NCBI GenBank assembly: GCA_017455005.1
Contig: JAFTBX010000034.1
Location: 1 to 58,720 of the forward strand
DNA from: Lachnospiraceae bacterium
GTDB taxonomy: Bacteria > Bacillota > Clostridia > Lachnospirales > Lachnospiraceae
Direction of reading: 5' to 3'
DNA length: 58,720 nucleotides
Part shown: positions 3,902 to 55,230 of the stretch, in pieces
Layout: every line of letters begins with the position of its first letter
Numbering within the stretch: position 1 is the stretch's first letter
Made by a program: the position numbers and the translations under genes
The notes under the pieces: model-generated
Told to the model about the DNA's origin: nothing
What the model saw: the letters and a program-made list of their open reading frames with translations, nothing else
Database searches by the model: none

Positions 3902-4082
3902 AAAACAGGCAGAAGAAATTATTTATGAAAGACCCGAGGGAAGTCCCAAGGGCCTTTTTTTATTGCGTTCATGCCTTTCCTGGGTTAAGATAGCACAGGG
4001 AGAAAAGTACTTGAGAATCGCACGTTCAGATTTGGCCGATCTGCAGAGAACTGACAGACCGTATTATATAAGGCAGATAACG

Positions 4083-4352
4083 ATGATCATACGCAGAGAA
4101 TATCATTTTACAGGAATCGTACAGGGCGTGGGTTTCCGCTGGAGAGCACGTCACGCCGCTGCCGGCATGGGCATCACCGGATGGGTGCACAACGAATGGG
4201 ACGGATCCGTCACGATGCAGGCGCAGGGAAGCGAGTTTCAGCTGGACCGGCTTTTGGAAGCAGTGAACGGCGGCGACTATATTGTCATCGATTCGGTCGA
4301 GGCGAAGGAACTTCCGCTCGAGGAAGATGAGTATGGATTTCATGTACGCTGA
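4083..4352 (+). CDS. acyP: Acylphosphatase
   Basis: VQGVGFRWRARHAAAGMGITGWVHNEWDGSV is the acylphosphatase signature. The internal Met at 4083 gives the family-typical ~90 aa length. Confidence 0.8.
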   Translation: MIIRREYHFTGIVQGVGFRWRARHAAAGMGITGWVHNEWDGSVTMQAQGSEFQLDRLLEAVNGGDYIVIDSVEAKELPLEEDEYGFHVR

Positions 4353-9671: not shown

Positions 9672-11501
9672 ATGAAAAAGCAACTTGCACTTGTTCTTGC
9701 TGCAGTCATGGTAAGTGCTTCTCTCGCAGCCTGCGGATCAAGCGGCGGCGCGGCAGAGACCACGGCAGCTCCGGCAGCTACCGAGGCAGCTGCAGAGACC
9801 GAAGCAGCTGAGACTGAAGCAGCAGAGACAGAGGCTCCGGCTGAAGCAGAAGCATCTGATGAGGCTCCTGACGCAGCAGCTCTTGTCAGCGACGCATTCA
9901 TCGATCCGGTCAACGACTGGGCAAAGTATGACGAGCTGATTGCAGAGATCAAGGCAGAGACCGACATGGCACATCGTACCGAGCTGATGCATCAGGCTGA
10001 GGACATCCTGATGAGCAACTACGCTGTTGTCCCGATCTACTACTACAACGATCTCTACATGGAGAAGGACTATGTCAAGGGCGTATATGCAAACTCATTC
10101 GCTACCAAGTTCTTCATGTATGCTACTCTTGAGAACGGTTCCGACACCCTTCGCCTGAACCTGGCTTCTGAGCCGGATTACCTTGATCCCGCTCTGAACT
10201 CTTCCGTAGACGGTGCCTGCCTTGCGGCAAATTCCTTCTCGGGTCTTTATACCTACAACGCTGAAGGCAAGCCGGTTCCGGCATGCGCTGAGAGCTATGA
10301 GGTTTCCGAGGATGGTCTGACCTACACCGTTAAGCTGAAGGAAGGCCTCAAGTGGTCCGATGGTTCCGATCTTACCGCAAGCGACTTCGTTTACAGCTGG
10401 AAGAGAGCTACTGATCCGAAGACCGCTGCAGACTACGAGTACATGTTCTCCGGTTTCGACGGATATGCTGATGGCAACATCAATGTTACCGCTGTCGACG
10501 ACACCACCCTTGAGTTTGTTCTGTCTGCTCCGTGCGCATACATGGAAGACCTGATGGCATTCCCGACCTTCTATCCGGTCAAGCAGGAGGCTGTTGAGTC
10601 CTATGCTGACTGGGAGACCACTCCGGGCGGATGGTGCCAGGAAGCAGGTTTCGTATCCAACGGCGCTTACGTCTGCACCGGCTGGAACCATGACACTTCC
10701 ATGACCTATGAGAAGAACCCGTACTTCTGGGATGCTGACAACGTCAAGATTGAGAAGCTTGAGTTCATGCTTTCCGCAGATGACACCGCGATCTTCTCCG
10801 CTTACAACGCAGGCGATGTTGATTTCATCGACACCGTACCGACAGACGAAGTCCAGGGCCTGATCAACTCCCAGAATCCGGAGTTCAAGGTCATCGACGA
10901 GCTTGGTACCTACTACATCGCATTCAACGTCAACTCCAAACTGTTCGAGGGCAAGACTCCGGAGCAGGCAGCATGCATGCGTGAGGCTATCAACCTTCTC
11001 ATCGACAGAGACTACATCGTAGAGAACATCGGCCAGACCGGACAGGTCATCGCTACTTCCTACATCCCGCTTGGTATGATGGACGGCAACGGCGGCACCT
11101 TCAAGAGCGATCCGGCAGTCGGCTACTATGATGCATATGCTATCAATGATGACTATGAGGGCACCATCGCAAAGGCTACCGAGCTTATGAAGGCAGCTGG
11201 CTTCAAGTTCGGCGAGGACGGCATGCTTTCCGAAGAGACTCCGCTGCAGATCGAGTATCTGACCAATGACGGTACCGGTCACGTAGCAATCGCTGAGTCC
11301 CTGCAGCAGGATCTGGGTGCGATCGGCATCAACCTTACCATCCAGAAGCAGGAGTGGAACGTCTTCCTTGAGGAGCGTAAGAACGGCAACTTCGATATGG
11401 CACGTGAGGGCTGGATCGCTGACTTCAACGACCCGATCAACATGCTTGAGATGTTCACCACCACTTCCGGCAACAACGACCCGCAGTACGGCCGCAAGTA
11501 A
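9672..11501 (+). CDS. oppA: Family-5 (OppA/DppA type) peptide-binding lipoprotein
   Basis: Signal peptide + lipobox LAAC, a long A/E/T linker, then the SBP_bac_5 core. AAGGAGG SD. Confidence 0.85.
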   Translation: MKKQLALVLAAVMVSASLAACGSSGGAAETTAAPAATEAAAETEAAETEAAETEAPAEAEASDEAPDAAALVSDAFIDPVNDWAKYDELIAEIKAETDMAHRTELMHQAEDILMSNYAVVPIYYYNDLYMEKDYVKGVYANSFATKFFMYATLENGSDTLRLNLASEPDYLDPALNSSVDGACLAANSFSGLYTYNAEGKPVPACAESYEVSEDGLTYTVKLKEGLKWSDGSDLTASDFVYSWKRATDPKTAADYEYMFSGFDGYADGNINVTAVDDTTLEFVLSAPCAYMEDLMAFPTFYPVKQEAVESYADWETTPGGWCQEAGFVSNGAYVCTGWNHDTSMTYEKNPYFWDADNVKIEKLEFMLSADDTAIFSAYNAGDVDFIDTVPTDEVQGLINSQNPEFKVIDELGTYYIAFNVNSKLFEGKTPEQAACMREAINLLIDRDYIVENIGQTGQVIATSYIPLGMMDGNGGTFKSDPAVGYYDAYAINDDYEGTIAKATELMKAAGFKFGEDGMLSEETPLQIEYLTNDGTGHVAIAESLQQDLGAIGINLTIQKQEWNVFLEERKNGNFDMAREGWIADFNDPINMLEMFTTTSGNNDPQYGRK

Positions 11502-12168: not shown

Positions 12169-12857
12169 TCCTGCGGCACCATTTCCGCGACCTCGAGTAC
12201 ATTGCCGCGCACATAAAAACGCACATCATAGTTGCAGTAGTAGAACCCGTAACGGCGTTTGCCGTCATTGTCCGCATCATAACGCGGACGGGGGTCCTCG
12301 CGTAAAACTTCATACAAAGCTTCCTGCTGCTCTAAGCTCAGGGAGCTTTTTTTGATGAGTTCCATGGGATCGGTGACCGTGAGTTCCTGGAAGGGCATCT
12401 CGTCTACGAAGCCGTTCCTTGCGTCGGGGTGGGAGTCATAGATGCTGATATAGGGCTTGATGTCATAGATCGGCGTGCCGTCCATCATGTCAATGCCGGA
12501 AACGTGTAAGACCGGACCCTGATCCTCCGTCATTTCAACCGAATCTAAGCGCACGGAGCTTAAGCCGATGCTGTTCGGGCGGAAGGGGGAGCGGGTGGCC
12601 CAGACGCCGACATGGGTCTTTCCGCCAAGCCTCGGCGGCTTGGAAGTAGCGGACCAGTCCGCGCGGTGCGCAAGCGAAAAGTCCCAAAGGATCCAGAGAT
12701 AGCTGAATCCGTCGAGCCCCTTCACGCCCTCGGGGTTGCGGTAATAGGGTTCAAAGACGATGCGGCCTTTTAACCCGTCCACGAGCCCGCTCTGGCGCGG
12801 CAGGCCGAACTTGGTCGGAAAATCCGTATAAATATGTGCTACCGGTCTGATCTCCAT
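12156..12857 (-). CDS. trmO: tRNA (t6A37-N6)-methyltransferase TrmO (TsaA/YaeB family)
   Basis: N-terminal IRPVAHIYTDFPTKFGLPRQSGL and the GFSYLWILWDFS region are typical of TsaA-like proteins. AGGAGG lies 7 nt upstream on the minus strand. Confidence 0.82.
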   Translation of the reverse strand: MEIRPVAHIYTDFPTKFGLPRQSGLVDGLKGRIVFEPYYRNPEGVKGLDGFSYLWILWDFSLAHRADWSATSKPPRLGGKTHVGVWATRSPFRPNSIGLSSVRLDSVEMTEDQGPVLHVSGIDMMDGTPIYDIKPYISIYDSHPDARNGFVDEMPFQELTVTDPMELIKKSSLSLEQQEALYEVLREDPRPRYDADNDGKRRYGFYYCNYDVRFYVRGNVLEVAEMVPQDQRS

Positions 12858-42185: not shown

Positions 42186-42221
42186 AAGGTCATTACAAAA
42201 ACATAATTCCTTCTATTAACG

Positions 42222-42252
42222 GCGGCGCATACCTCAGGGTATGCGCCGTTTT
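42222..42252 (+). terminator. Rho-independent terminator of the hyp-mbh block
   Basis: CGGCGCATACC-tcag-GGTATGCGCCG followed by TTTTGTTG. Confidence 0.85.
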
Positions 42253-42392
42253 GTTGTGGGCAGCAATGAGGAAACTATGCAGGAATGATGCGCCCCTGAA
42301 TAATATTGAATGACGGAAAAACATAGTTATTCGATATATTAGATAAAACGATAACCGATTATAAGTATTTTAAAAAGAACAATCCAAATGTA

Positions 42393-42421
42393 TTGACATG
42401 TGTTAGATACAGTGATATCAT
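42393..42421 (+). promoter_or_regulatory. Sigma-A promoter of the Met-leader / metQ-like unit
   Basis: TTGACA (42393-42398), 17-nt spacer, extended -10 TGaTATCAT (42413-42421). Confidence 0.6.
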
Positions 42422-42549
42422 TACGCACAACAAGAAGAAATACCCAGTAAACAGATAGGTAATAAACTGTTTCAGGGCGCCGGATGAACCTCGCGCCTCA
42501 GATGTGAGGACGACATCCGCAGACTCTATACGGGAAAGGAGGACCAGCC

Positions 42550-42618
42550 ATGAAGAGACTTCATACGATGACAGCCATGTGTATGTACATGTGCGGCATG
42601 ATGCGCCGTATGTATTAA
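42550..42618 (+). CDS. 22-codon Met/Cys-rich small ORF (candidate regulatory leader peptide) MKRLHTMTAMCMYMCGMMRRMY
   Basis: AAAGGAGG (42535-42542) lies 7 nt before the ATG. 8 of 22 codons are ATG and 2 are Cys. The ORF is followed by two intrinsic terminators before the metQ-like gene. It is not in the ORF track because it is under 60 aa. Confidence 0.55.
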   Translation: MKRLHTMTAMCMYMCGMMRRMY

Positions 42619-42667
42619 AGTCGTTCTTCGCATGAGCTGAGTTTTCAAATACAGTTGAATCATCAGA

Positions 42668-42695
42668 CAGGGCGATCGGACGACGCCCTGTTTTT
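42668..42695 (+). terminator. Intrinsic terminator/attenuator 1 in the metQ-like leader
   Basis: CAGGGCG-atcggacga-CGCCCTG followed by TTTTT. Lies 49 nt after the small-ORF stop. Confidence 0.7.
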
Positions 42696-42803
42696 ATGTG
42701 GGAAGATTTGAAAGCACGCGACGGTCATCAGGACCGGGATATCGTGTGCACGGACTGTGATGGGACAGTACGGCGGAAAGGATCAACCACAGGATGCAAG
42801 CGG

Positions 42804-42844
42804 CATCCGCAGGGCAGCAGCTATGCTTTATGCGGATGTTTTTT
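42804..42844 (+). terminator. Intrinsic terminator/attenuator 2 in the metQ-like leader
   Basis: CATCCGCA-N19-TGCGGATG followed by TTTTTT. The 5' arm can alternatively pair with GGATGC at 42792-42797. Confidence 0.65.
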
Positions 42845-42992
42845 ATTGTAAAAAACCGGGCGCAAGGCCTTACCGGAAACGGCATCCGGATAAAGACGGA
42901 AAGGAACATACAGCCGGGAAGAAGATCCTTCCCGGAGACCATCACAGAAAAACCCGGGATCCACGGGCAGTTCAGACTTAAGGAGGAACATC

Positions 42993-43982
42993 ATGAAAAA
43001 GAATATCATAGCAGCAGCACTTACGGCGATCATTGCGTCATCAGCCATCACCGCATGCGGCGGTTCTACCGCGGCAGCAACCACAGCCGCAGCAACAACA
43101 GCCGCAGCAACGACGGCCGCAGAAACGACGGCAGCTGCCGCAGCAGAGACCACAGAAGAGGAAGCGGCAGATGCAAAACCGGTTGAGGCTGCGGAAGGCG
43201 CAGAAGCGGATACTGCAGAACCGATTCACCTGACCATCGGCGTGACCGGAAGCGTCTATGACGATCTCTGGGCACCGGCGATCGAGACCCTGGAGCAGGA
43301 AGGCATCATCCTTGAGACCGTACAGTTTTCCGACTATGTTACACCCAACAACGCCCTTGCCAACGGTGAGACCGATCTGAACGGCTTCCAGCACCGCATC
43401 TATCTGGCATCGGAGATCGAGCAGTACGGTTACGAGATCACCAACATCGGCAATACCTTCATCTCCCCGATGAACCTTTATTCCGACAAACTCACTTCCC
43501 TGGACGAACTTCAGGACGGAGACGTCATTGCGATCCCGAATGATCCCACAAACGGCGGCAGAGCCATCAAGGTCCTGAGCGACGCAGGTCTGATCACACT
43601 GAAGGCTGACGCCGGATTCAACCCGACAGTGGAGGATGTGGAGACTTATAACGTCGGTATCACCATCGAGGAACTTGCGGCCAACACCATCCCGTCGATC
43701 CTTCCGGATGTGGCTGCGGCGATCATCAACGGCAACTACGCGCTTGACTTCGGCTTAAGGACGGAAGACGCGCTCTTCCATGACAAGATGGAGGAAGAGG
43801 AGTACTGGAACCTGATCGCCTGCAGGACGGAGGACTTAAGCGATCCGGTGCTGGTCGAGGCATATGACAAGGTCGTCAAGGCATACCAGTCCGCAGGAAC
43901 AAAGCAGGTCTACGACGAGCAGTTCGGCGGCTACTATGTAGGCGTAGGCTGGGACCAGGACCTGCTTGCAGATTACAAGTGA
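42993..43982 (+). CDS. metQ: MetQ/NlpA family methionine(-analogue)-binding lipoprotein, no adjacent MetN/MetI
   Basis: Lipobox ITAC. Core similar to MetQ (DYVTPNNALANGETDLNGFQH, SLDELQDGDVIAIPNDPTNGGRA). AAGGAGG SD. Confidence 0.85.
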   Translation: MKKNIIAAALTAIIASSAITACGGSTAAATTAAATTAAATTAAETTAAAAAETTEEEAADAKPVEAAEGAEADTAEPIHLTIGVTGSVYDDLWAPAIETLEQEGIILETVQFSDYVTPNNALANGETDLNGFQHRIYLASEIEQYGYEITNIGNTFISPMNLYSDKLTSLDELQDGDVIAIPNDPTNGGRAIKVLSDAGLITLKADAGFNPTVEDVETYNVGITIEELAANTIPSILPDVAAAIINGNYALDFGLRTEDALFHDKMEEEEYWNLIACRTEDLSDPVLVEAYDKVVKAYQSAGTKQVYDEQFGGYYVGVGWDQDLLADYK

Positions 43983-44109: not shown

Positions 44110-45510
44110 ATGGCTACACTACTTCAGGACCTCATCCGGATCATACCGGATCCGGAGAGGATCATCACAGAAAACATTGACAGAAAATACTTAAGCGACC
44201 AGCTCGGCCGTAAGCAGGGACATGCCGACGCACTTATATTCGCGGTTTCCACCGAAGAGGTAAGCGGCGTGCTGCGGTACGCGTGGAAGCATGCTATCGC
44301 TGTGACGCCGCGCGGCGCCGGTACCAATCTGGTCGGGTCCACTGTGCCGCAAAAGGGAGGCATCATCCTGGATTTGAGCCGGATGAACCGTATCCTGGAA
44401 CTGGATGAGGATACCTTTACGGTGACAGTGGAGCCTGGGATACTGCTTCGCGATCTGCAGGCATACGTGGAAGCCCGCGGACTGTTCTATCCGCCGGATC
44501 CCGGTGAGAAGGAAGCGTCCATCGGCGGCAACATCAGTACCAATGCCGGCGGGATGCGGGCCGTAAAGTACGGCGTTACCAGGGATTATGTGCGCGGGCT
44601 GGAGCTTGTCACGGCAGACGGAACGGTCATGACGGTCGGCACCAAGAATGTAAAGGACACGACCGGCCTGCCTTTAAAGCACCTCATCATCGGCGCCGAA
44701 GGAACGCTGGCAGTGATCACAAAGTGCATCCTGCGGCTGATCCCGAAGCCGGAAACGACGGTGAGTGTACTTATCCCGTACCCCGACTTAAAGACCGGCA
44801 TCGGAAGCGTGATCCGTTTTCTGCGCGCCGATGCGGATCCGGTCGCCGTCGAATTTATGGAGCGCAGCGTTGTCAGGCTTGGTGAGGCTTATGCCGGCGT
44901 AAAGTATCCGGACGGCCCGGGCGCGGCAGGGAAAGGAAAACGGGCGGAGTCATATATCCTCCTTTCCTTTGACGGGAGCCGCAGCGAAGTCGAACAGAAA
45001 GTAGAGCGCGTACGGCGCCTTGCTTTTGAAAACGGGTCGCTTGATTACCTGCCTCTCTGGGATCCTAAGCAGGCAGCGGAGATCTGGGCCGTGCGGGGCG
45101 CTCTGGTGAAAGCTGTCGAGGCGGTCTCGGAACAGGAACCCATCGATCTGGTCGTGCCGATCGACAAGTCGGAGGAATTCATCCGCTTTGTCAATGACTT
45201 AAGCGCACGCACGGGCATGCAGATGATCAGCTTCGGACACGCGGGCGACGGCAACGTCCATCTGTGCGTCGTCCGGGGCGACCGGGACGAGGAGACCTGG
45301 GAGAGGGAGCTCGACGCAAACCTGTCAGAGCTCTACAGCCGCACCTATGAGATCGGCGGGCTGATCTCCGGAGAGCACGGGCTGGGCATTTCCAAGCGAA
45401 AGTATTTCTTTAAGGAAGCTGATCCTGCCAATGTCGACTGGATGAACCGGATCAAGGATGCGCTTGATCCGAAGCATATCCTTAATGACAGGATCTCCTA
45501 CATCAGGTAA
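44110..45510 (+). CDS. FAD-linked oxidase (GlcD / D-lactate-D-2-hydroxyacid dehydrogenase family)
   Basis: FAD_binding_4 motifs (VTPRGAGTNLVGS, ISTNAGGMRAVKYG) and a C-terminal FAD-oxidase domain (SGEHGLGISKRKY). Weak SD. Confidence 0.82.
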   Translation: MATLLQDLIRIIPDPERIITENIDRKYLSDQLGRKQGHADALIFAVSTEEVSGVLRYAWKHAIAVTPRGAGTNLVGSTVPQKGGIILDLSRMNRILELDEDTFTVTVEPGILLRDLQAYVEARGLFYPPDPGEKEASIGGNISTNAGGMRAVKYGVTRDYVRGLELVTADGTVMTVGTKNVKDTTGLPLKHLIIGAEGTLAVITKCILRLIPKPETTVSVLIPYPDLKTGIGSVIRFLRADADPVAVEFMERSVVRLGEAYAGVKYPDGPGAAGKGKRAESYILLSFDGSRSEVEQKVERVRRLAFENGSLDYLPLWDPKQAAEIWAVRGALVKAVEAVSEQEPIDLVVPIDKSEEFIRFVNDLSARTGMQMISFGHAGDGNVHLCVVRGDRDEETWERELDANLSELYSRTYEIGGLISGEHGLGISKRKYFFKEADPANVDWMNRIKDALDPKHILNDRISYIR

Positions 45511-45637: not shown

Positions 45638-46798
45638 ATGAGGACACTATCTGACAGAACAGCACATTTTACGGATTCGGTGATCCGACGCATGACCAGG
45701 ATCTCCAACAAATACGGCGCGGTCAACCTTTCACAGGGATTTCCGGACTTTGATCCCCCGCGGGAGATCCTGGACCGCCTGAAGGAAGTGGCGGACGGGC
45801 CGCTCCATCAGTATTCGATCACCTGGGGCGCACAGAACATACGTGAAGCGCTGGCTGCAAAGCAGAAGTATTTTACCGGGCTTGACGTTGACCCCGACAG
45901 CGAGATCGTCGTGACCTGCGGCAGCACCGAGGCGATGATGGCGACCATGATGGCGCTCATCAACCCGGGAGAGAAGGTCGCGATCTTTTCGCCGTTTTAT
46001 GAAAACTACGGCGCGGACACGATCCTTTCCGGCGCGGAACCGGTCTACATACCGCTCGTACCGCCGGAATACGGCTTTGACCCGGAGAGACTGGAGCAGG
46101 CCTTCCGCGATGGCTGTAAGGCGCTGATCCTCTGCAATCCGTCCAATCCGTCCGGCAAGGTATTTACACGGGAAGAACTGCTTACGATCGCGGATCTTGC
46201 CGAACGCTATGACGCCTGGATCGTGACGGACGAAGTCTACGAACACATCGTTTACGCTCCGTACCGCCATATCTGCTTTGCAGCGCTTCCGGGCATGAAG
46301 GAACGGACGATCACCTGCAGCTCTCTCTCCAAGACCTACTCGATCACCGGCTGGCGTCTGGGATATACAATCGCTCCGCCCGAAGTAACGGACCGGATCA
46401 AAAAAACGCATGATTTCCTGACGGTCGGCGCAGCCGCACCCCTGCAGGAAGCGATCGTGACAGGCCTTCATTTCGGGCAGGACTATTACGACGCGCTGCT
46501 TCGGAAATACACGGCGCGCCGGGATCTCTTCCTGAAGGGCCTTGACGATATCGGCCTCATCCATAACGTGCCGCAGGGCGCATACTATGTCATGATGGAC
46601 GTGAGCGAGTTCGGCTATGACGACGACCTGAAATTCTGCGAGGACCTCGCGGCCAGGGTCGGTGTCGGCGCGGTGCCTGGTTCGAGCTTCTTCAATGAAC
46701 CGGAGAACCGCTATATCCGTTTCCATTTTGCAAAGCGCGAGGAGACGCTCAACGAGGCGCTTGCGAGGCTCGCGGATATCCGTAAGAAGATCAGATAA
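45638..46798 (+). CDS. Class-I PLP aminotransferase, YbdL/KAT-like (methionine aminotransferase type)
   Basis: Start at the internal Met at 45638. AVNLSQGFPDFDPP, TDEVYEHI and SLSKTYSITGWRLGY closely mirror E. coli YbdL motifs (INLSQGFPDFDGP, SDEVYEHI, SFGKTYHMTGWKVGY). Confidence 0.85.
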   Translation: MRTLSDRTAHFTDSVIRRMTRISNKYGAVNLSQGFPDFDPPREILDRLKEVADGPLHQYSITWGAQNIREALAAKQKYFTGLDVDPDSEIVVTCGSTEAMMATMMALINPGEKVAIFSPFYENYGADTILSGAEPVYIPLVPPEYGFDPERLEQAFRDGCKALILCNPSNPSGKVFTREELLTIADLAERYDAWIVTDEVYEHIVYAPYRHICFAALPGMKERTITCSSLSKTYSITGWRLGYTIAPPEVTDRIKKTHDFLTVGAAAPLQEAIVTGLHFGQDYYDALLRKYTARRDLFLKGLDDIGLIHNVPQGAYYVMMDVSEFGYDDDLKFCEDLAARVGVGAVPGSSFFNEPENRYIRFHFAKREETLNEALARLADIRKKIR

Positions 46799-46899: not shown

Positions 46900-47916
46900 A
46901 TGAAAAAGGTTAAGATAGGCATCATCGGCATCGGAAATGTAGGATCGCATGTGCTTTATACGCTGGCGCTGCAGGGACTGGCCGATGAGTTTGTTCTCAT
47001 AGACATCAACGAAAAGAAGGCGGCAGCTGACCGGCAGGATACCTTCGACAGCGCCATGTTCCTGCCGCATAAGGTAAAGATCACGGTGGCGCACATCGCG
47101 GAAAATGATGCCGGAGATGGAAAGCAGGATCAGACCACAGCGTCTCAGGATACCGACGGCTTCGCGCTGCTTCGCGACTGCGACATCATTATCAACAGCG
47201 TCGGACAGATCGACTTGCTTCGGGTGGGACATGACCGCTTCACCGAGCTTAAGTTCAACATCCCGGCGGTACGCAGCTATGCAGGGCGCATCGCCGCTTC
47301 AGGCTTTAACGGCATTATCGTCAACATTTCCAATCCCTGTGACGTTATCACCCATGAGCTGATCCGCCTGATCCCGCTCCCGAAGGGCCGTATCTTCGGT
47401 ACCGGCACGGGCCTTGACACGGCGCGTCTTCGCGCGGCGCTCGCGGACAAACTGAACGTAAGCGTAGACTCCATCGTCGCCTATATGTTCGGCGAGCACG
47501 GAAGCCACCAGATCACGCCGTGGTCGATCGCAAGCTTCGACGGCATACCGCTCGACGTGATGGAGAAGCTGGATCCGCGCTTTTCCTTCGACCGTGAAAA
47601 GGCGGAGCACGCGGCGGCGGAGGGAGGCTGGGTGACTTACTACGGCAAGTTCCATACCGAGTTTGCCATCTCACTGACAGCATCCCGGATCGTAAAGGCG
47701 ATCATATACGACGAGAAGGCCGTGCTTCCCGCGAGTTGCCTGCTGGAGGGCCAATATGGAGAGCACGATGTCTGCGCGGGCGTTCCGGCAGTCATCGGCG
47801 CAGGCGGCGTGGAACTCATCCCGGAGCTTCCGATCACCGATGAGGAAAAAACACGTTTCCATGAGTGCTGTGAGGTCATTCGCGCCAACATTGCCCGGGC
47901 AGCGGAACTGAACTGA
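46900..47916 (+). CDS. LDH/MDH-superfamily L-2-hydroxyacid dehydrogenase, divergent
   Basis: Rossmann IGIIGIGNVGS...LIDI, NPCDVIT, GTGTGLDTARLR, GEHGSH (catalytic His). The substrate loop is atypical, with a ~25-aa insertion after strand 3. Confidence 0.75.
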   Translation: MKKVKIGIIGIGNVGSHVLYTLALQGLADEFVLIDINEKKAAADRQDTFDSAMFLPHKVKITVAHIAENDAGDGKQDQTTASQDTDGFALLRDCDIIINSVGQIDLLRVGHDRFTELKFNIPAVRSYAGRIAASGFNGIIVNISNPCDVITHELIRLIPLPKGRIFGTGTGLDTARLRAALADKLNVSVDSIVAYMFGEHGSHQITPWSIASFDGIPLDVMEKLDPRFSFDREKAEHAAAEGGWVTYYGKFHTEFAISLTASRIVKAIIYDEKAVLPASCLLEGQYGEHDVCAGVPAVIGAGGVELIPELPITDEEKTRFHECCEVIRANIARAAELN

Positions 47917-53825: not shown

Positions 53826-53842
53826 ATGCATCGTAAATTAAT

Positions 53843-53976
53843 ACCTATGAAGAGTGCGTGAGAGACAAGCTCGAAGACCGCACAGCAACCTACCCGGTTG
53901 GGCAAGGTGCTAAAGCTTGACCGATGGGTGAGATAATAGCGACATCAGGCCCTGACGGTAAGTCGGGGCTTTTTTA
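53843..53976 (+). promoter_or_regulatory. SAM-I (S-box) riboswitch with terminator expression platform
   Basis: Conserved cores are present: GAAGAG, GCGTGAGAGA (kink-turn region), CAGCAACC, AAGGTGCTAAA, GAGATAATAG. Followed by a GCCCTGAC-ggtaa-GTCGGGGC hairpin + T6 (53949-53975), immediately upstream of metK. Confidence 0.85.
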
Positions 53977-54048: not shown

Positions 54049-55230
54049 ATGGCAAGAAGATTATTTACATCCGAGTCGGTGACGGAAGGACATCCTGACA
54101 AACTCTGCGACCAGATCTCTGATGCGGTCCTTGACGCAATCATCGCGAAGGACCCGAACGCGCATGTTGCGTGTGAGACATTCTGCACGACCGGTCTTCT
54201 TACCGTTATGGGCGAGATCACGACAAACTGCTATGTGGACATCCAGAAGATCGCCCGTCAGGTTATCTGCGACATCGGCTATGACAGAGCCGAGATGGGC
54301 TTTAACGGAAACACCTGCGGCATCCTGACTGCCATCGACGAGCAGTCCGGCGACATCGCCATGGGCGTCAACAAGTCCTACGAGTACAAGGACGGCGAAG
54401 AGGACGAGGCGAACCTTCGCGGTGCCGGCGACCAGGGCATCATGTTCGGCTATGCCTGCAACGAGACTCCTGAGTATATGCCGCTTGCGACCAGCCTTGC
54501 GCATAAGCTCGCGATGAAGCTTGCGGCTGTACGCAAAGAGGGCAGGTACGAGTATCTTTGCCCGGACGGAAAGAGCCAGGTGACTGTAGAATATGAAGGC
54601 GACAAACCGGTCCGCGTGGATACGGTCGTTCTTTCCACGCAGCATAAGGATACTGTATCACTGGAGCAGCTTCGTGAGGACATGATCCAGGGCGTTATCC
54701 TTGAGGTGATTCCGGATGAGCTGATCGACGACAAGACCCGCTTCTTCATCAATCCGACCGGACGTTTCGTCATCGGCGGACCGCAGGGCGATACCGGCCT
54801 TACCGGACGTAAGATCATCGTTGACACCTACGGCGGCGCGGCACGTCACGGCGGCGGTGCATTCTCCGGAAAAGACCCGACAAAGGTGGACCGTTCCGCA
54901 GCATACGCGCTTCGTCATATTGCTAAAAATGTTGTCGCAGCCGGCCTCGCTGACCGCTGCGAGATCCAGGCAGGCTACGCCATCGGCGTCGCAAAGCCTG
55001 TATCTGTCATGGTCGAAACCTTCGGCACCGGCAAGTACACGAACGAAGAGATCGAAGAGGCGATCAACAAGGTCTTTGACCTTCGCCCGTACTGCATCAT
55101 CCGCGACCTTGATCTCTTAAAGCCGATCTACCGCCGTACTGCGGCTTACGGCCACTTCGGAAGAGAAGAGGAAGGTTTCACCTGGGAGAAGCTTGATAAG
55201 GTCGAAGAGCTGAAGGCAGCGATCGGCTGA
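54049..55230 (+). CDS. metK: S-adenosylmethionine synthase
   Basis: [56 protein letters not shown]. Confidence 0.97.

Follow-up and report, generated by a model that had tools for sequence, protein, structure and literature searches.

The leader region that precedes a metQ-type gene on contig JAFTBX010000034.1 of a Lachnospiraceae bacterium (GenBank assembly GCA_017455005.1) is probably a ribosome-mediated, or leader-peptide, transcription attenuator, in which the Met codons of a short open reading frame (ORF) are regulatory and the controlled genes form an operon for methionine uptake and salvage. The whole stretch of DNA analysed, positions 1 to 58,720 of the contig, is referred to as the window; the coordinates of its features are positions on its forward (+) strand, and related loci carry handles of the form L001. 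The original prediction, made from the sequence alone, had proposed a translated Met-codon leader controlling premature termination before a metQ-type operon, and this central reading passed the comparative tests presented here. The sequence features, their conservation, the alternative RNA pairings and the covariation reported below are computed, and from them we infer that the ORF is translated, that ribosomes stall at its Met codons, that the operon responds to methionine and that a first terminator (T1) relays its state to a second one (T2).

The leader ORF and its conservation in relatives

The near-consensus promoter noted earlier at 42393-42421 is present; this sigma-70-type site reads TTGACA-17 nt-TATCAT (nt, nucleotides), matches the consensus at 11 of 12 positions and is moreover TG-extended. 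Downstream of it, a strong Shine-Dalgarno (SD) sequence, AAAGGAGG (42535-42542), is separated by 7 nt from the ATG (42550) that opens the ORF MKRLHTMTAMCMYMCGMMRRMY (42550-42618), whose 22 codons comprise 8 Met and 2 Cys codons and which ends in a UAA at 42616-42618; M10-M18 are the likely regulatory codons. Both the SD with its 7-nt spacing and the Met-rich ORF had been described in these terms, and both hold up. The window has 494 ORFs that start with ATG and span 12-60 codons; this one is the most Met-rich of them, and its 8 ATG among 22 in-frame codons are the six-frame maximum in the window, where the runner-up has 6. Next in Met richness among the small ORFs comes MMHMLSMMTMRAPSQRLPSL (11128-11190), which is contained, in another frame, in a gene encoding 609 amino acids (9672-11501) and was dismissed as a chance ORF.

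Homologues of the leader were gathered from the loci of MetQ homologues and by two peptide-pattern scans, and were grouped as six diverged lineages. The scan of genome contigs returned 16 matches with 2 true homologues and that of metagenome contigs 7 matches with 1 true homologue, the remaining matches being unrelated proteins or the metY analogues treated below. The closest MetQ homologues belong to Lachnospiraceae metagenome-assembled genomes from cattle and goat forestomach, and the leader was found in at least six diverged rumen Lachnospiraceae lineages, in which the identity of MetQ to that of the window goes down to 62%. All lineages share the promoter, the SD, T1 and a short ORF, which is 21-32 codons long and includes 8-11 Met and 2-5 Cys codons. 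The promoter occupies the same relative position, as TTGACA + TGnTATnnT, in L003, L010, L012, L023 and L034, and has TTGACT in L031, while the SD core GAAAGGAG is kept 6-9 nt upstream of the start codon in every homologue. The leader peptide of the window recurs in L001, L002 and L023; L012 encodes MKRLHTMKAMCMYMCGMMRRMY, L031 MKRQNTMGMCMYMCGMMRRMY, which is one codon shorter, L003 MKRRHSMCVMCMYMCGMMCRMD, L010 and L032 MKR(D/N)HTMMVMCMYMCGMMCRMD, and L034 and L035 MRAVGRNMDMMRMMMYMCGMMMCRSEFCCSSR, with 32 codons and 11 Met.

Indels in the leader ORF are always multiples of three (a one-codon deletion in L031, codon insertions in L034), and the stop codons differ between lineages (TAA, TGA). 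Besides the stop codon, codon positions 4, 5, 6, 8, 9, 19 and 22 vary among the homologues, and the non-Met substitutions are non-conservative (L4R/D/Q/N, T8K/C/M/G, Y22D). Among the forms of 21-22 codons, in a small number of lineages, the substitutions hit only non-Met positions. The YMCGMM core and R20 are invariant in all lineages; in L034, MMM replaces the MCM of the other lineages (Cys11 to Met). The expectation that the ORF and its Met codons would be found upstream of orthologous clusters was therefore borne out in six lineages, with drift in the other codons, in the stop codon and in the 5' untranslated region (UTR), which is not conserved upstream of the SD. Within the ORF, RNAalifold predicts a hairpin, UGCGGC/GCCGUA (42592-42610), that holds Met codons 17-18 (AUGAUG) in its loop; in all 10 sequences the pairs concerned (alignment columns 68-73 with 84-89) are either unchanged or G-U, and the hairpin may serve for pausing or synchronising.

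The leader unit always lies on the same strand as, and directly upstream of, methionine transport or salvage genes, including those cases in which another gene comes first (L003, L010, L031, L034). The operon begins either with metQ or with an OCD/mu-crystallin gene that precedes metQ, and its variants in relatives include metQ-metN-metI and metQ-amidohydrolase-metN-metI.

None of the S-adenosylmethionine (SAM), T-box or other known RNA elements explains the leader. Searching 42200-43100 against Rfam gave no family match even at E <= 10 (noise only), the 13 related loci gave none at the gathering score, and the SAM-I and T-box covariance models did not match at the leader. In the whole window, the gathering score was reached only by a tRNA and by the SAM-I riboswitch of metK. 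The latter (53842-53930, 57.7 bits) lies upstream of metK (54049-55230) and 11 kb from the Met-codon leader, in agreement with the earlier statement that metK is under a classical SAM-I riboswitch in the same window.

Alternative RNA structures and the proposed mechanism

The two hairpins with U-runs that had been placed between the ORF and metQ are both there. T1 (42667-42695) is composed of ACAGGGCG (42667-42674), a 9-nt loop, CGCCCTGT (42684-42691) and T5, and its stem is invariant in 10 of 10 aligned sequences; with a loop limit of 8, a simple consensus terminator scan missed it. T2 (42804-42844) joins a strong hairpin, formed by CATCCGCA (42804-42811) and TGCGGATG (42831-42838), to a run of T6. 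The leader as a whole folds better than shuffled sequences (z = -3.9).

Constrained folds and covariation point to a four-segment attenuator with alternative 1:2, 2:3 and 3:4 pairings, an arrangement that was absent from the original prediction. According to the predicted folds, segment 1 (42539-42561) comprises the SD, the start and the first codons and forms the 5' strand of the 1:2 helix, an anti-antiterminator that would sequester the SD. Segment 2 (42618-42646) is the post-ORF sequence GTCGTTCTTCGCATGAGCTGAGTTTTC, which contains an anti-SD-like (C/G)(C/T)TTTC and can be the partner of either segment 1 or segment 3. Segment 3 consists of the 5' arm and loop of T1, and segment 4 of its 3' arm. 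The stop codon stands 2-3 nt before segment 2 and Met codons 10-18 lie 15-39 nt 5' of it; in L034 the longer ORF runs through segment 2.

The ON state was folded with the RNA masked to a point 12 nt beyond the GMM codons, mimicking a ribosome that waits for Met-tRNA. These masked folds gave the same 2:3 antiterminator (42620-42684 in the window) in all nine lineages folded, at -17 to -21 kcal/mol, with the terminator alternative at -21 to -24.5 kcal/mol and the antiterminator as the minimum free energy (MFE) structure in the window, L002 and L012. Its helices are GUCGUUC:GGACGAC, which involves the T1 loop, UCGC:GCGA, which involves the T1 5' arm, and CUGA:UCAG, and they enclose an inner hairpin, UUCAA/UUGAA. 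Covariation was counted on alignment A2, with slid partners as controls. For the antiterminator, 93.9% of the cells were paired compared to 30-43% in the slid controls, and five pairs had changed on both sides, as exemplified by UCGUUC:GGACGA in the window, UUGUUC:GAACAA in L031 and CUUCA:UGAAG in L034. Hence, the T1 loop appears to be conserved because it pairs with segment 2 in the antiterminator. Of the alternative pairings suggested originally, GGATG:CATCC for T2 is found in most lineages, whereas those suggested for T1 did not stand; the predicted antiterminator joins 42620-42640 to the loop and 5' arm of this terminator.

Unconstrained folds and RNAalifold, which represent the OFF state, gave the 1:2 helix together with small ORF hairpins and T1. 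The 1:2 helix (42539-42561 with 42618-42646) occurs in the unconstrained MFE fold of most homologues and its core in the RNAalifold consensus; 84% of its cells were paired compared to 35-51% in slid controls, with covariation support that is weaker than for the antiterminator, and modest.

In the mechanism that we propose, transcription would start from the promoter at 42393-42421 and a ribosome would load at the strong SD of the 22-codon ORF. With Met-tRNA(Met) plentiful, the ribosome would reach the UAA at 42616-42618, where its footprint would cover the first ~12 nt of segment 2 (GUCGUUCUUCG); with segment 2 masked, nothing would keep segment 3 from pairing with segment 4, and transcription would end at T1. 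If the ribosome had been released, or if translation had never begun, segment 2 would pair with segment 1, which would favour T1 and shut off leader translation. In the outer part of this 1:2 helix the SD would be paired with the anti-SD-like (C/G)(C/U)UUUC, so that the leader would be translated in early rounds only. A shortage of charged tRNA(Met) would make the ribosome stall at Met codons 10-18, leaving segment 2 exposed and segment 1 occupied or separated; the exposed segment 2 would then bind segment 3 through three short helices, so that T1 would be blocked and the polymerase would read on. The interleaved Cys codons are probably secondary sensors. A second stage is less certain: the 3' arm of T1 (GCCCUGU), once freed, would pair with GCAGGGC of T2, and GGAUG with CAUCC, and T2 would be blocked as well, while polymerases leaking past a formed T1 would meet no free segment 4 and be stopped at T2.

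The 5' arm of T2 contains GCAGGGC (42809-42815), which is invariant in nine lineages and complementary to the T1 3' arm. When ON intermediates were folded, with the 5' arm of T2 made, its 3' arm not yet made and the T1 antiterminator in place, GCAGGGC paired 7/7 with the T1 3' arm in 9/9 lineages, and GGAUG of the box CACAGGAUG paired with CAUCC. On the DNA this box reads CACAGGATG (42788-42796), and conservation and a predicted hairpin support the pairing of its GGATG(C) with CATCC in the outer T2 5' arm. The box is conserved in the window, L002, L012, L023, L010 and L032, and L031 has GGAGGAT. The T2 hairpin is predicted in the 8 lineages folded, in each case with a U-run after it, and has 3' arms that differ and pair in different registers. 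Judged by this conservation and these predicted folds, T2 may be a fail-safe that is bypassed only after antitermination at T1, a role to which we would give slightly less than an even chance. The most diverged leader (L034:2780-2935, also L035) has, ~50 nt beyond T1, the sequence GCAGCAGGGCGG with complementarity to the 3' arm of its T1.

Two further candidates in the stretch between T1 and T2 were rejected. A second leader ORF controlling T2 was discarded, as the ORFs found there (42696-42851 in the window, and an SD-led one in L031) are not conserved, and so was a conserved aptamer, as the spacer ranges from 60 to ~150 nt in length and its versions have no more in common than the CACAGGATG box and generic hairpins.

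The structured segment and sequence repeats described for the 5' UTR exist in the window, but are not part of the conserved core. The hairpin at 42481-42519, in which CGGATG (42481-42486) and CATCCG (42514-42519) enclose CCTCA (42496-42500) and TGAGG (42505-42509), is lineage-specific and accessory; it was found in the window, L001 and L002, and is absent or different in L012, L023, L031, L003, L010 and L034. The repeats of the window are GGATGC at 42792-42797, CAGGGCG at 42473-42479 and CATCCGCAG at 42514-42522 and 42804-42812. The duplications represented by CAGGGCG and by the upstream CATCCGCAG are present but not conserved, and they are not the T1 mechanism: L001 and L002 have CAAAGCG in place of the CAGGGCG at 42473, and the CATCCGCAG copy at 42514 is absent, together with the hairpin, from the same six loci. 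The global MFE structure of the window pairs 42514-42522 with the 3' arm of T2, and this long-range pairing was rejected as lineage-specific because the 42514 copy is not conserved.

Weighing of competing explanations

A ligand-sensing arrest peptide of the TnaC/SpeFL type, in which an MYMCGMM-R core stalls at high free methionine or a derivative of it, would turn the operon ON at high methionine and suit catabolism. The invariance of YMCGMM and R20 would fit such a peptide, the downstream enzymes could in principle run from methionine to keto acid to hydroxy acid, and any stall would trigger the same RNA switch. However, the invariant non-Met codons, G16 and R20, lie in the stem of the conserved ORF-internal hairpin and appear to be conserved at the nucleotide level because both form that stem, while the number of Met codons and their positions have drifted in L034 and L010, which fits codon counting better than a fixed motif. 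Furthermore, the leader of relatives drives plain metQ-metN-metI importers, for which induction by starvation is the sensible logic, and unrelated Met/Cys ORFs stand before the biosynthetic gene metY. Known ligand-sensing arrest peptides (tnaC, speFL) act through Rho-dependent termination and not through an intrinsic terminator with an antiterminator, whereas these are the very control elements predicted here, and an arrest peptide is thus unlikely. Another proposal, which refines the Met-codon attenuator and is compatible with it, takes the Cys codons or any slowdown of elongation as the signal, so that the leader would be a sulfur amino-acid or general translation sensor. Every lineage has 2-5 Cys codons among its Met codons, the metY analogues alternate M and C, and polycysteine small ORFs are described as Cys-responsive attenuators in mycobacteria (bioRxiv 10.1101/834739). 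Nevertheless, with Met:Cys codon ratios of ~2:1 to 4:1, with Cys11 changed to Met in L034 and with regulated genes that are Met-specific (MetQ and a methionine-aminotransferase-like enzyme), we regard this version as very improbable.

The promoter, the ORF and T1 might also constitute a stand-alone gene for a Met/Cys-rich micropeptide (Cu(I)- or metal-binding, or redox-active), separate from the metQ operon. The peptide offers many thioether and thiol ligands, its core is conserved, the strong T1 follows immediately 3' of the ORF, and Met/Cys/His-rich proteins with MCMMMCPMM motifs exist elsewhere (L005, L009). The latter are deltaproteobacterial/Syntrophobacteraceae proteins of ~250 amino acids (L005, at ~1005 on the + strand; L009, on the - strand) with Met/His/Cys-rich tails (…GKMCMMMCPMMG…HHGGMGG…DCPMMKQ…) reminiscent of Met-rich motifs that bind copper or other metals; these tails bear no relation to the leader. 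Against a separate gene, the promoter scan found no other promoter-like site between T1 and metQ, no metal-homeostasis genes are present near the leader among the annotated neighbours, and the unit always accompanies methionine transport or salvage genes on the same strand. Moreover, the non-Met residues change freely and non-conservatively, and the T1 loop covaries with the post-ORF segment although a simple gene terminator needs no antiterminator, which together leaves a micropeptide gene with very little probability. Lastly, T1 and T2 could be governed by an untranslated RNA element, either a novel riboswitch or the site of an RNA-binding protein, with the ORF as an accident of CAUG-rich self-complementary sequence. 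In line with this, the nucleotides of the Met-run hardly vary and include the palindromic CAUGUACAUG and small hairpins, and the spacer between T1 and T2 has hairpins of conserved architecture and the conserved CACAGGAUG box, the control of which is only partly explained. However, all lineages have retained a consensus SD at the correct spacing, the start, the open frame and an in-frame stop in spite of the indels; no Rfam family matched, the 5' UTR before the SD is not conserved, and the spacer is only 60 nt in L003 and hence unlikely to be an aptamer. An untranslated element is therefore very unlikely.

Several points nevertheless weigh against the Met-codon attenuator and its second stage. 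The whole evidence base is computational, and it comprises only about six independent lineages from one narrow clade, so that the covariation counts are small and the shuffle statistics are inflated by relatedness. The probability that 6-7 variable codon positions would all miss the internal Met codons by chance is ~0.03-0.06, and the YMCGMM core is invariant at nearly all nucleotides, including most synonymous sites, so a constraint at the RNA or peptide level beyond codon identity may also be acting. Neither a leader ORF nor an Rfam element was found at the more distant MetQ orthologues L027-L030 and L037-L042, where a replacement of the leader by an S-box or T-box was likewise sought and not found. 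As for the relay, L003 is without the CACAGGATG box, and the full-length equilibrium ON state keeps T2 in 6 of 8 lineages and loses it only in the window and L031, so any relay would be kinetic. L034 has the CAGGGCG box but no T2 hairpin or U-run; since it retains a box complementary to T1 without T2, the pairing of segment 4 with this box (4:5) may act beyond the blocking of T2, or T2 may have been lost recently. Finally, methionine limitation also depletes initiator formylmethionyl-tRNA (fMet-tRNA), which could blunt the response and, under severe starvation, lead to super-attenuation.

Genomic context, analogous leaders and known systems

The first gene under the predicted control (42993-43982; SD AAGGAGG at 42980-42986) encodes a substrate-binding lipoprotein of the MetQ/NlpA family (PF03180, E = 2.4e-66), whose best NCBIfam matches are MetQ-type, all of them below the curated cut-offs. 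Family searches identified the following genes as a GlcD-like D-2-hydroxyacid oxidase/dehydrogenase linked to flavin adenine dinucleotide (FAD) (44110-45510), a methionine-aminotransferase-like class I/II aminotransferase (ending at 46798) and an L-lactate dehydrogenase (L-LDH)-like dehydrogenase (46900-47916). Oribacterium sp. C9 and further relatives have this gene set next to metNIQ; in the more distant orthologous clusters, that of Oribacterium sp. C9 among them, the order is metN-metI-metQ-aminotransferase-LDH-FAD oxidase, and neither the leader nor any Rfam element was present. The set would fit uptake of D/L-2-hydroxy-4-methylthiobutyrate and its keto acid and their conversion into methionine. 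An operon with MetQ, D- and L-2-hydroxyacid dehydrogenases and a methionine aminotransferase would offer a plausible rumen route for the methionine hydroxy and keto analogues used in feeding dairy cattle. MetQ, sometimes together with MetN and MetI, repeatedly occurs with aminotransferase-like and L-LDH-like genes in rumen and gut bacteria (window, L027, L028-L030, L034, L037), and a GlcD-like FAD D-2-hydroxyacid dehydrogenase joins the MetQ cluster in the window, L001/L002, L012 and L027.

On its other side, the leader is preceded by an Ech/NADH-dehydrogenase-like cluster that has a terminator of its own, a strong 13-bp hairpin at 42221-42250 with a conserved counterpart in L010 and L032. Since the upstream operon ends at this terminator, the leader promoter would start an independent transcription unit. 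An AT-rich box, TATAAGTATTTTAAAAAGAACA, lies at 42360-42381 of the window, ~12-33 nt upstream of the -35 hexamer. In L003 and L031 it is found again 5' of the leader promoter, with looser versions in L012, L010 and L032. The box may be an UP element or may bind a transcription factor, which would add a protein layer of control.

A loose peptide pattern also retrieved short ORFs unrelated to the Lachnospiraceae leader, with 6-12 Met and 3-5 Cys in 29-44 codons, which are followed by a strong terminator and then by metY. Their hosts are Flavobacteriaceae, Elusimicrobia and unclassified low-GC contigs, and they include MTTTANQMMMCMCMCMMMHLPRLCRKTTS of Flavobacteriaceae (L018:7488-7577, +), MK(I/F)TNLNKSMFC.MQMMCMCMCMMM(M)CLMLLYYPD (L020:8742-8849, +; L021; L026, reverse complement 12533-12637), ...MVCSPMMCMAMCQMMYMH... 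(L011, reverse complement 2093-2227) and ...APMCMCMCPMM... of Elusimicrobia (L017, reverse complement 4061-4156). The gene after these terminators encodes an O-acetylhomoserine sulfhydrylase (TIGR01326, above cut-off), with metX next where this was checked (L020). The 3' end of the ORF is complementary to the 5' arm or loop of the terminator, for example UUUGUCGAAA:UUUCGGCAAA in L018, UUCUGGGG:CCCCAGAA in L011 and UGUAUUACC:GGUAAUACA in L020, and an antiterminator arising from this 3' end was predicted by folding in L018 and L011 and recognized by eye in L020 and L026. None of these metY-linked leaders had an Rfam match. By their sequences they look like independently evolved Met/Cys leader-peptide attenuators, a convergence that lends support to the general idea of attenuators based on Met/Cys codons. 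A broader claim would be that Met(/Cys)-codon leaders form a widespread, unrecognized attenuator class, with independent origins in Lachnospiraceae (metQ-type genes) and in Flavobacteriaceae, Elusimicrobia and others (metY-metX), and that the Lachnospiraceae version is in addition a two-stage relay; both parts would have to hold, and we put this joint claim forward tentatively, as a possibility that is somewhat more doubtful than probable.

If the attenuator operates as proposed, ribosomes would be able to report the charging of elongator Met-tRNA although initiation also needs methionine, and a single genome would combine two read-outs, SAM through the S-box of metK and charged tRNA(Met) through the uptake/salvage operon. 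Likewise, a relay from T1 to T2 would be a simple design for cutting basal leak without losing induction, and might find further use in synthetic biology. In textbooks, met genes are controlled by SAM riboswitches, by Met T-boxes or by the proteins MetJ, MetR and MtaR, and to our knowledge methionine is a conspicuous gap among the amino acids sensed by leader-peptide attenuation. In the open-access literature we found no established methionine leader-peptide attenuator, the only precedent being the predicted metL of Streptomyces.

The classical attenuators of Escherichia coli and Salmonella (trpL, hisL, leuL, thrL, ilvL and pheL, with the Rfam leader families) likewise have an SD-led short ORF with cognate codons, share the 1:2, 2:3 and 3:4 alternatives, place an intrinsic terminator before the first structural gene and have a stop codon that lets the ribosome mask segment 2. 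The Lachnospiraceae leader has no sequence or Rfam similarity to them and differs in its AUG (and Cys) codons, a specificity that is not among the established classes, and in its host, a member of the Clostridia, where S-box and T-box control dominates. Moreover, its segment 1 would be the SD/start region and not the regulatory codons, its antiterminator would invade the loop of the terminator, and its second terminator is apparently wired to the first.

For Streptomyces lividans TK24, a leader termed metL has been predicted before metNIQ; the ORF ends in …ARCMCRRMCAF and is proposed to be a Met-dependent attenuator (PMC8079986). It is leaderless and encodes 29 amino acids with 3 Met besides the start, and its authors state that there is no typical Rho-independent terminator and that the mode of termination is unclear (PMC8079986). 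Like the Lachnospiraceae leader, metL places Met and Cys codons upstream of a methionine ATP-binding cassette (ABC) importer; the passages of that paper dealing with metL report neither alternative structures nor conservation (PMC8079986), and we take it as an analogue and not a homologue. Leaderless polycysteine small ORFs of mycobacteria are described as acting as Cys-responsive attenuators (bioRxiv 10.1101/834739), and Cys leader peptides have been predicted in Actinobacteria, where the account given in the relevant passages is that no intrinsic terminator/antiterminator pair was found (PMC1262725). These Cys leaders resemble the present one in having runs of sulfur-amino-acid codons upstream of sulfur-metabolism operons, but, as described in these sources, they sense Cys only and belong to a different phylum with a different architecture. 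In Firmicutes, leader peptides for His (predicted) and Leu/Phe (Naville and Gautheret, 2010; PMC2965389) and the ilv leader of Listeria (PMC5864092) indicate that regular attenuation in place of T-boxes exists there, although the examples in these reports sense other amino acids, have unrelated sequences and use a single terminator.

With the S-box (SAM-I) and the Met T-box, the Lachnospiraceae leader shares premature intrinsic termination in the 5' leaders of met genes, but its signal would be charged tRNA(Met), read by the translating ribosome, instead of the binding of SAM or of uncharged tRNA. Taken together, the computations give a well-supported case for a new form of leader-peptide attenuation, based on Met (and Cys) codons, which occurs in Clostridia, may include a two-terminator relay and is not a categorically new mechanism.

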